Virus record (IMG/VR): IMGVR_UViG_2534682108_000005
Span: 1 to 17,046 of that record
Length of the DNA: 17,046 nucleotides
Strand: one strand, 5' to 3'
DNA from: a virus
Taxonomy: Duplodnaviria; Heunggongvirae; Uroviricota; Caudoviricetes
This document shows, one piece after another, positions 16,039 through 16,115 of the stretch (the first letter of the stretch is position 1; every line of letters starts with the position of its first letter). The position numbers were made by a program, and so were the translations under genes. The notes below the pieces were generated by a model. It was not told the DNA's origin. It saw nothing but the letters and a program-made list of their open reading frames with translations, and ran no database searches.

Positions 16039-16115
16039 CCGCCATTAGCTCATCAGGAAAGAGCGCCAGCTTTCGAAGCTGGTTGCGCGGAGTTCGGGCC
16101 CCCGAAGGCGGTCCA
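16039..16115 (+). tRNA. tRNA-Arg-like with anticodon UCG and a non-canonical T-arm; possibly degenerate
   Basis: Acceptor CCGCCAT/AAGGCGG with one A-A mismatch, D-arm TAGCTCATCAGGAAAGAGC, perfect anticodon stem CCAGC/GCTGG with loop TT-TCG-AA, T-stem CGGAG/CCCCG with one mismatch, T-loop TTCGGGC (G in place of the conserved A58), encoded CCA. Confidence 0.5.

Follow-up and report, generated by a model that had tools for sequence, protein, structure and literature searches.

The middle tRNA gene of a lambdoid prophage cluster as a probably weakened allele of argN

The window, the whole 17,046-nt stretch of DNA analysed here, carries a cluster of three tRNA genes whose middle member is, on sequence comparison, the already-known argN from the ileZ-argN-argO cluster that E. 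coli prophages of the lambdoid group (Stx-type and related) carry. With a probability of roughly 60%, we consider this copy to be a weakened allele under relaxed constraint, part-way along a decay path, in a defective prophage. Exactly three tRNAs were called in the window by ARAGORN, all on the + strand: an ileZ-type tRNA with a CAU anticodon (15956..16031), the argN allele, a 77-nt tRNA-Arg(UCG) (16039..16115), and an argO-type tRNA-Arg(UCU) with a canonical cloverleaf (16129..16205), separated by spacers of 7 and 13 nt. The middle gene has the same boundaries as in the sequence-only reading of this DNA, which had described a 77-nt UCG cloverleaf between a CAU tRNA and a tRNA-Arg(UCU). The same reading had proposed comparing the covariance scores of the three genes; against the Rfam family RF00005, whose gathering score is 29 bits, they reach 72.5, 40.6, and 70.1 bits, respectively. 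The argN hit has an E value of 1e-5 over the whole window and is therefore not a chance match; it lies above the family threshold, ~14–18 bits below the canonical argN alleles and ~30 bits below its neighbours. PGAP labels the trio tRNA-Ile, tRNA-Arg, and tRNA-Arg, with no pseudogene flag on argN, and the tRNA-Ile call denotes a reader of AUA after lysidine modification. A different anticodon or fold from the search tools, the outcome that the sequence-only reading had regarded as decisive against it, was not seen, since ARAGORN reads UCG and Rfam reports a tRNA. That the call is an artefact, has a mis-called anticodon, or concerns something other than a tRNA homologue is next to impossible: the only point in its favour is the score lower than those of the neighbours, and it is countered by the agreement of two independent methods on boundaries and anticodon, and by the 88% identity to the argN of phage 933W between the same neighbours.

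The gene is built of an acceptor stem CCGCCAT/AAGGCGG, a D arm GCTC-ATCAGGAAA-GAGC, an anticodon arm CCAGC-TTTCGAA-GCTGG with a perfect stem and the anticodon at 16073-16075, a variable loop TTGCG, a T arm CGGAG-TTCGGGC-CCCCG, and a 3′ end with T73 followed by an encoded CCA. The features first pointed out in the sequence-only reading are all present: an A6·A67 mismatch in the acceptor stem (16044/16106), an A52·C62 mismatch in the T stem (16091/16101), a G at position 58 (16097), and a perfect anticodon stem and loop (UU-UCG-AA). A scripted pair check independently finds the same two mismatches and the other 19 pairs intact, so that the gene departs from the fully paired stems of an elongator tRNA at A6·A67 and A52·C62. 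Its T-loop, TTCGGGC, retains U54, U55, C56, and G57 and lacks the invariant A58. The identity set of E. coli ArgRS comprises A20, C35, G36 or U36, and A or G at position 73, where base 73 is a minor element and a purine is usual in E. coli tRNA-Arg. A20 (in the D-loop AUCAGGAAA), C35, and G36 are present in the window argN. The purine discriminator is not, and since U73 occurs in every argN allele including that of 933W, it characterises the whole family and is no lesion particular to this copy.

The assignment to argN was examined by comparison with phage 933W, where ARAGORN finds the same CAT/TCG/TCT trio upstream of stx2 in the order Q, pR′, tR′, tRNAs, stx2. The gene names ileZ, argN, and argO stand in the GenBank records of 933W, Min27, and Stx2a phages, and the reference records for the cluster are AF125520, Y10775, and AP012536. 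Alignment to the Stx-phage genes, which had been suggested as a check, shows that the ileZ of the window is identical to 933W ileZ, that argO has one difference, and that argN is the same at 68/77 positions and differs at 9/77. The sequence-only reading had found a UCG anticodon unexpected in a lambdoid cluster, expecting readers of AUA, AGA, and AGG; this expectation was mistaken, as UCG is the norm for the middle gene. TCG is carried by nearly all sampled full-length (77-nt) middle-slot alleles, and TCT by one. Searches of the available literature for the names ileZ, argN, and argO retrieved no paper on the gene; the cluster counts as already known from the GenBank annotations and, presumably, the 933W genome paper.

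Of 5426 complete E. coli genomes, 3061 carry the cluster, at 7601 places in all. A search of 185,579 species representatives with a pattern for the undamaged 5′ half of argN gave three matches, an Escherichia sp. and two MAG contigs, and on these matches argN is essentially absent outside Escherichia. The two contigs, assigned to an uncultured Collinsella MAG (L130) and a Proteobacteria MAG (L128), carry the E. coli-type cluster at near identity, with a window-type argN in L130, and most likely represent mis-binned E. coli prophage DNA. Separately, the argO of L130 (near 1180-1270) has a break in the 3′ T stem followed by unrelated sequence, and argO is cut just after the anticodon loop (...CCTTCTAAGCAGCTGTGGTTGCACTCC...) in four of the IMG/VR loci L005-L124. 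Such cut argO genes may mark integration or recombination events that target the prophage tRNA. Position 37 of argO is G in 933W and A in the window.

Over the tRNA cluster, the window matches the sequence of E. coli O157:H16 strain Res13-Lact-PEA12-26 (NZ_CP062876) at 100% identity; the match lies in a lambdoid prophage of this genome, the one to which the PGAP labels belong. The cluster has its usual place in a lambdoid prophage, between a Q-type antiterminator and the lysis or toxin genes. On the 5′ side lie a RusA gene and a Q-like late antiterminator gene (13721..14284, + strand; Pfam DUF1133, 348 bits; Phage_antitermQ, 31.9 bits against a cut-off of 26). A small ORF between the Q-like gene and a methyltransferase ends in a terminator-like hairpin (14693-14710), and the DNA methyltransferase gene (14857..15906, + strand; Pfam N6_N4_Mtase, 150.7 bits) stands immediately upstream of the cluster. 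The order of methylase and then tRNAs recurs in two further loci (L003 and L127), and Stx2a and Stx2e phages, too, have this gene beside the cluster. On the 3′ side, the full genome shows a sialate O-acetylesterase gene, not stx, followed by holin, lysozyme, and structural genes; the prophage is non-Stx. It is also defective according to PGAP, with the integrase, the tail tape-measure gene, and gene T as pseudogenes, the integrase being truncated beside an IS66 element.

Several small RNA elements were also observed in the window. STnc100 (Rfam, 134.6 bits) occupies 16315-16512 on the + strand, ~110 nt 3′ of the tRNA genes, with a terminator hairpin at its end. An STnc100 element likewise follows stx2B in 933W (207.7 bits, L002 4707-4912), and the element is therefore a conserved part of the late-region module. 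Convergent with it, 16512-16571 on the − strand gives a sub-threshold match to AgvB (53.1 bits; gathering score, 56) and 45.3 bits to AsxR, with its own terminator GCCCGAACCCACTCGGGC followed by a T run. The corresponding position is occupied by AsxR in 933W and by AgvB in another locus (L030), and by sequence the element is probably a divergent member of the anti-sRNA family of EHEC prophages. A sok antitoxin RNA (11530-11705, + strand, 116.4 bits) adjoins a Hok/Gef ORF, and a DicF sRNA (4124-4175, − strand, 76.7 bits) lies in the dicB region; neither is unusual in a lambdoid prophage of the Qin/Rac kind.

Codon usage, another check that had been proposed, was compared between the annotated genes of the prophage and 39 core genes of the host from the same genome. 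CGA (1.9-fold, p=0.004), AGA (4.5-fold), AGG (10.6-fold), and AUA (2.7-fold) are all commoner in the prophage genes, as is CGG (3.3-fold). A tRNA-Arg with U34 would read CGA and probably CGG too, and the ileZ-argN-argO trio would then leave no rare Arg or Ile codon uncovered. E. coli K-12 is not known to have a UCG tRNA and reads CGA through inosine. We propose that the three genes would be transcribed together, probably with the late transcript, and that host tRNA-processing enzymes would cut them out of it. The products would add decoding for codons scarce in host genes and overrepresented in prophage genes, with AUA read by ileZ, CGA and CGG by argN through U34, and AGA and AGG by argO.

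The enrichment of CGA and CGG is consistent with a serious, though less likely, alternative, that the window allele still works as a tRNA-Arg(UCG) and would be processed, aminoacylated by ArgRS, and used for CGA (and CGG), perhaps less efficiently than canonical argN. Counting likewise for it and against decay, every tRNA caller used (ARAGORN, Rfam, and PGAP) still accepts the gene, and the anticodon stem-loop, the D arm, and A20, C35, and G36 are intact. These points meet the difficulty that A58 pairs with T54 in essentially all elongator tRNAs, and that 2 of the 12 pairs of the acceptor/T-arm helix are broken in the window argN. Of the three options left by the sequence-only reading, a functional CGA-decoding tRNA fits the argN family, and comparative data, set out below, favour a decaying pseudo-tRNA for the window allele; a tRNA-like regulatory element is unsupported, as Rfam gives no convincing match besides the tRNA family at this interval.

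We then compared the middle slot across 120 loci, namely the window and 119 further loci from IMG/VR retrieved by a pattern search with anchors at the ileZ 3′ end and the argO 5′ end. The A58 class accounts for 51 loci and is nearly all perfectly paired. The window-type class, which has A52 and G58 and almost always A67, is found at 26/120 loci, and other G58 alleles at nine, including G58 alone (three loci) and a 3-mismatch class with a CUCGGG/CCCGGG loop (five loci). A further 31 loci hold an 80-nt remnant whose T-loop is usually GCGGGU, and the remaining 3/120 have slots of other lengths. The argN of CFT073 has A52 and G58 and still U67; given this intermediate and the alleles with G58 alone, the lesions appear stepwise. 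The Rfam scores descend through the classes: canonical alleles obtain 58.4, 55.1, and 54.8 bits, G58 alone 54.0, an allele with a GGCGGGT T-loop 45.3, and the window type 42.9 in its common form and 40.6 in the window itself, while the 3-mismatch class obtains 26.4 and 22.2 bits, below the threshold. The 80-nt remnant has no Rfam tRNA match and no ARAGORN call. Across the 120 loci, the middle slot forms what we read as a decay series from canonical through window-type and 3-mismatch alleles to the remnant. Two rarer variants were seen beside these classes: an otherwise canonical argN allele (among L025 and one other IMG/VR locus) has the anticodon UCU in place of UCG (CCTTCTAAG), duplicating the specificity of argO, and another argN allele has G37 (CCTTCGGAG).

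The same states are abundant in complete E. coli genomes. Window-like alleles are present in 997 genomes (1056 places), 933W-like alleles in 1216 genomes (2429 places), and the 80-nt remnant in 1863/5426 genomes (2336 places). The exact window allele is restricted to two complete E. coli genomes, and the best identity to it among 284 deposited phage genomes with the slot is 92.8%, which is weak evidence as the collection is dominated by Stx phages. The remnant is the most widespread state of the argN slot (for example L116, and L003 1633-1713). It keeps a perfect 7-bp acceptor stem, the D arm, the T stem, and TCCA, and a foreign 27-nt segment replaces the anticodon arm and variable loop. In strain RM10740, where it lies upstream of stx2e, PGAP labels it 'tRNA-OTHER', and elsewhere it is unannotated. 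One remnant allele has its G-run T-loop expanded to 12 G.

The diversity of the three genes points in the same direction as the allele series. The body of ileZ is the same in 116/122 loci. Only bases outside the search pattern were counted, although the choice of loci by exact flank matches still somewhat lowers the measured diversity of ileZ and argO; pi is 0.002 for ileZ (6/52 segregating sites) and 0.024 for argO (22/62), and it is 0.079 for argN among the 77-nt alleles (37/77) of the sampled loci. In the 51 A58 loci, pi amounts to 0.0015 for ileZ, 0.019 for argO, 0.048 for argN, and 0.22 for the 13-nt spacer, so that argN varies about one-fifth as much as the spacer. In the 26 window-type loci, the values are 0.0015, 0.0025, 0.0142, and 0.0178, respectively, and argN is about as diverse as the spacer and ~6–9-fold more so than the flanking tRNAs, a figure that is suggestive and no formal test, given a spacer of 13 nt and 26 non-independent loci. 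Pairing behaves similarly. In the A58 group (24 distinct alleles), standard pairs make up 99.4% of stem cells; the three breaks are each confined to a single allele, and the usual polymorphisms exchange G-C for G-U or the reverse. In the G58 group (16 distinct alleles), 90.8% of cells are paired, the breaks fall at 7 pairs, and it is the broken states that are frequent. Further damage appears on the window-type background, namely G50A, G10U, and a change of CCA to UCA. This spacer-like diversity and the additional breaks speak against a working tRNA in the window-type lineage, as does the widespread complete loss of the slot. For it there remain the allele with G58 only, which scores like canonical ones, and the commonness of the lineage, as ~997 genomes with window-like alleles would also be expected of a tolerated, still useful variant.

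Structural covariation and folding were considered as well. The argO gene shows a compensatory T-stem change across loci (CACTGG/CCAGT to CAGTGG/CCACT). No double-sided compensatory change was found within the A58 or the G58 group of argN, where divergence is too shallow for a covariation test, and covariation therefore gives no direct support for the argN fold. Thermodynamic folding was rejected as evidence, as MFE and cloverleaf-constrained ensembles fail to tell good alleles from bad: the genuine tRNAs ileZ and argO lack the cloverleaf as their MFE structure, too, and enforcing non-standard pairs in constrained folding yields meaningless probabilities. An alternative hairpin, TTCGG-GCCC-CCGAA, which is made by G58, C63, and A67 and had hinted at selection for another fold, was likewise set aside as coincidence, its pairing being lost in related TTCAAGT alleles.

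We regard the lesions of the window argN as derived because 933W argN is perfect with A58, ileZ is identical and argO has one difference between the two, and intermediates exist. The proposed lineage would first have gained G58, breaking the T54-A58 pair of the T-loop, then A52, breaking a T-stem pair, and finally A67, breaking an acceptor-stem pair. It would have retained the anticodon arm, the D arm, and A20, C35, and G36, and other copies of the slot would have gone further along the path, some to completion. Counting for decay are also the dispensability of the slot, which is a remnant in 1863 genomes, and the defective state of the prophage. Given the apparently relaxed constraint in this lineage, the window copy is most likely a weakened tRNA on its way to becoming a pseudogene. 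What the comparisons show directly is the identity and anatomy of the gene, its allele series, the pattern of diversity, and the codon bias; transcription with the late genes, the charging of argN with arginine, and the loss of its activity we infer.

The retained parts of the 80-nt remnant raise another explanation, that the middle slot is kept for a role other than decoding. It could serve as a processing module, with RNase P cutting the slot and so releasing ileZ at its 3′ end and argO on its 5′ side, or it could face toxins that cleave the anticodon loop of tRNA-Arg, as a decoy or a resistant substrate. Such a role would agree with the remnant keeping its 7-bp acceptor stem, T stem, and TCCA when its anticodon arm is replaced, with the very short spacers, and with the near absence of outright slot deletions among the sampled loci; however, the sample required both flanks at a set distance, which makes such deletions invisible. 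Moreover, the window allele weakens the very acceptor/T-arm helix that RNase P would need, retention of the remnant is explained equally well by a recent single event and hitchhiking between conserved tRNAs, and no direct evidence for a processing or decoy role was found. We judge this explanation very improbable. It is likewise very improbable that the G58/A52/A67 allele is a selected, non-canonical tRNA or tRNA-like RNA, not decaying, in about a thousand E. coli genomes. In one version, it would read CGA and CGG and, through the changes in its elbow and acceptor helix, would evade or sequester a nuclease or defence system that targets tRNA-Arg; in another, it would be a processing module for the maturation of ileZ and argO.

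The finding is of little importance in itself, since the cluster has long been annotated in Stx and related lambdoid prophages and UCG is the normal middle anticodon. Its by-product is a case of unequal constraint within one three-gene tRNA cluster: over thousands of E. coli prophages, ileZ hardly varies, argO is conserved, and argN spans everything from an intact tRNA to a dead remnant. This suggests that supplementation of CGA/CGG is dispensable and that supplementation of AUA and AGA/AGG is not. Additionally, automated 'tRNA-Arg' calls for the argN slot cover alleles of very different likely competence.

Compared with known systems, the window argN is closest to that of 933W. Both have the CAU-UCG-UCU gene order with very short spacers, the anticodon, the 5′ half, U73 and the CCA end, and the placement between antiterminator and lysis or toxin genes. 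The 933W gene is a perfect cloverleaf with the T-loop TTCGAGT and scores 54.8 bits, whereas the window gene scores 40.6 bits and differs by G58, A52 (A·C), A67 (A·A), U32, U44, A17, A20a, C60, and C63. The 933W cluster lies upstream of stx, while that of the window lies in a defective non-Stx prophage before the sialate O-acetylesterase gene. With the 80-nt remnant, the window argN has in common the slot, the acceptor stem, the D arm, and, for most remnant copies, G58; in contrast to the remnant, whose anticodon arm is replaced by unrelated sequence and whose T-loop is without UUC in most copies, it keeps a complete cloverleaf and is called by both ARAGORN and Rfam. More distant counterparts are the Asn and Thr tRNAs downstream of Q in SfI, Sf6, and P21, which were read as codon supplementation for phage genes (PMC3636060). 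A four-tRNA cluster, Ile(CAT)-Lys(TTT)-Thr(TGT)-Gly(TCC), holds the corresponding place after an antiterminator gene in E. coli TW10598 (L004 1539-1848) and begins with a related ileZ-type gene; the position behind ileZ thus has the look of a variable cassette. Like the window, the SfI, Sf6, P21, and TW10598 clusters have their tRNA genes just after the late antiterminator, but these are other tRNA species with other sequences, analogous to argN and not members of its family.
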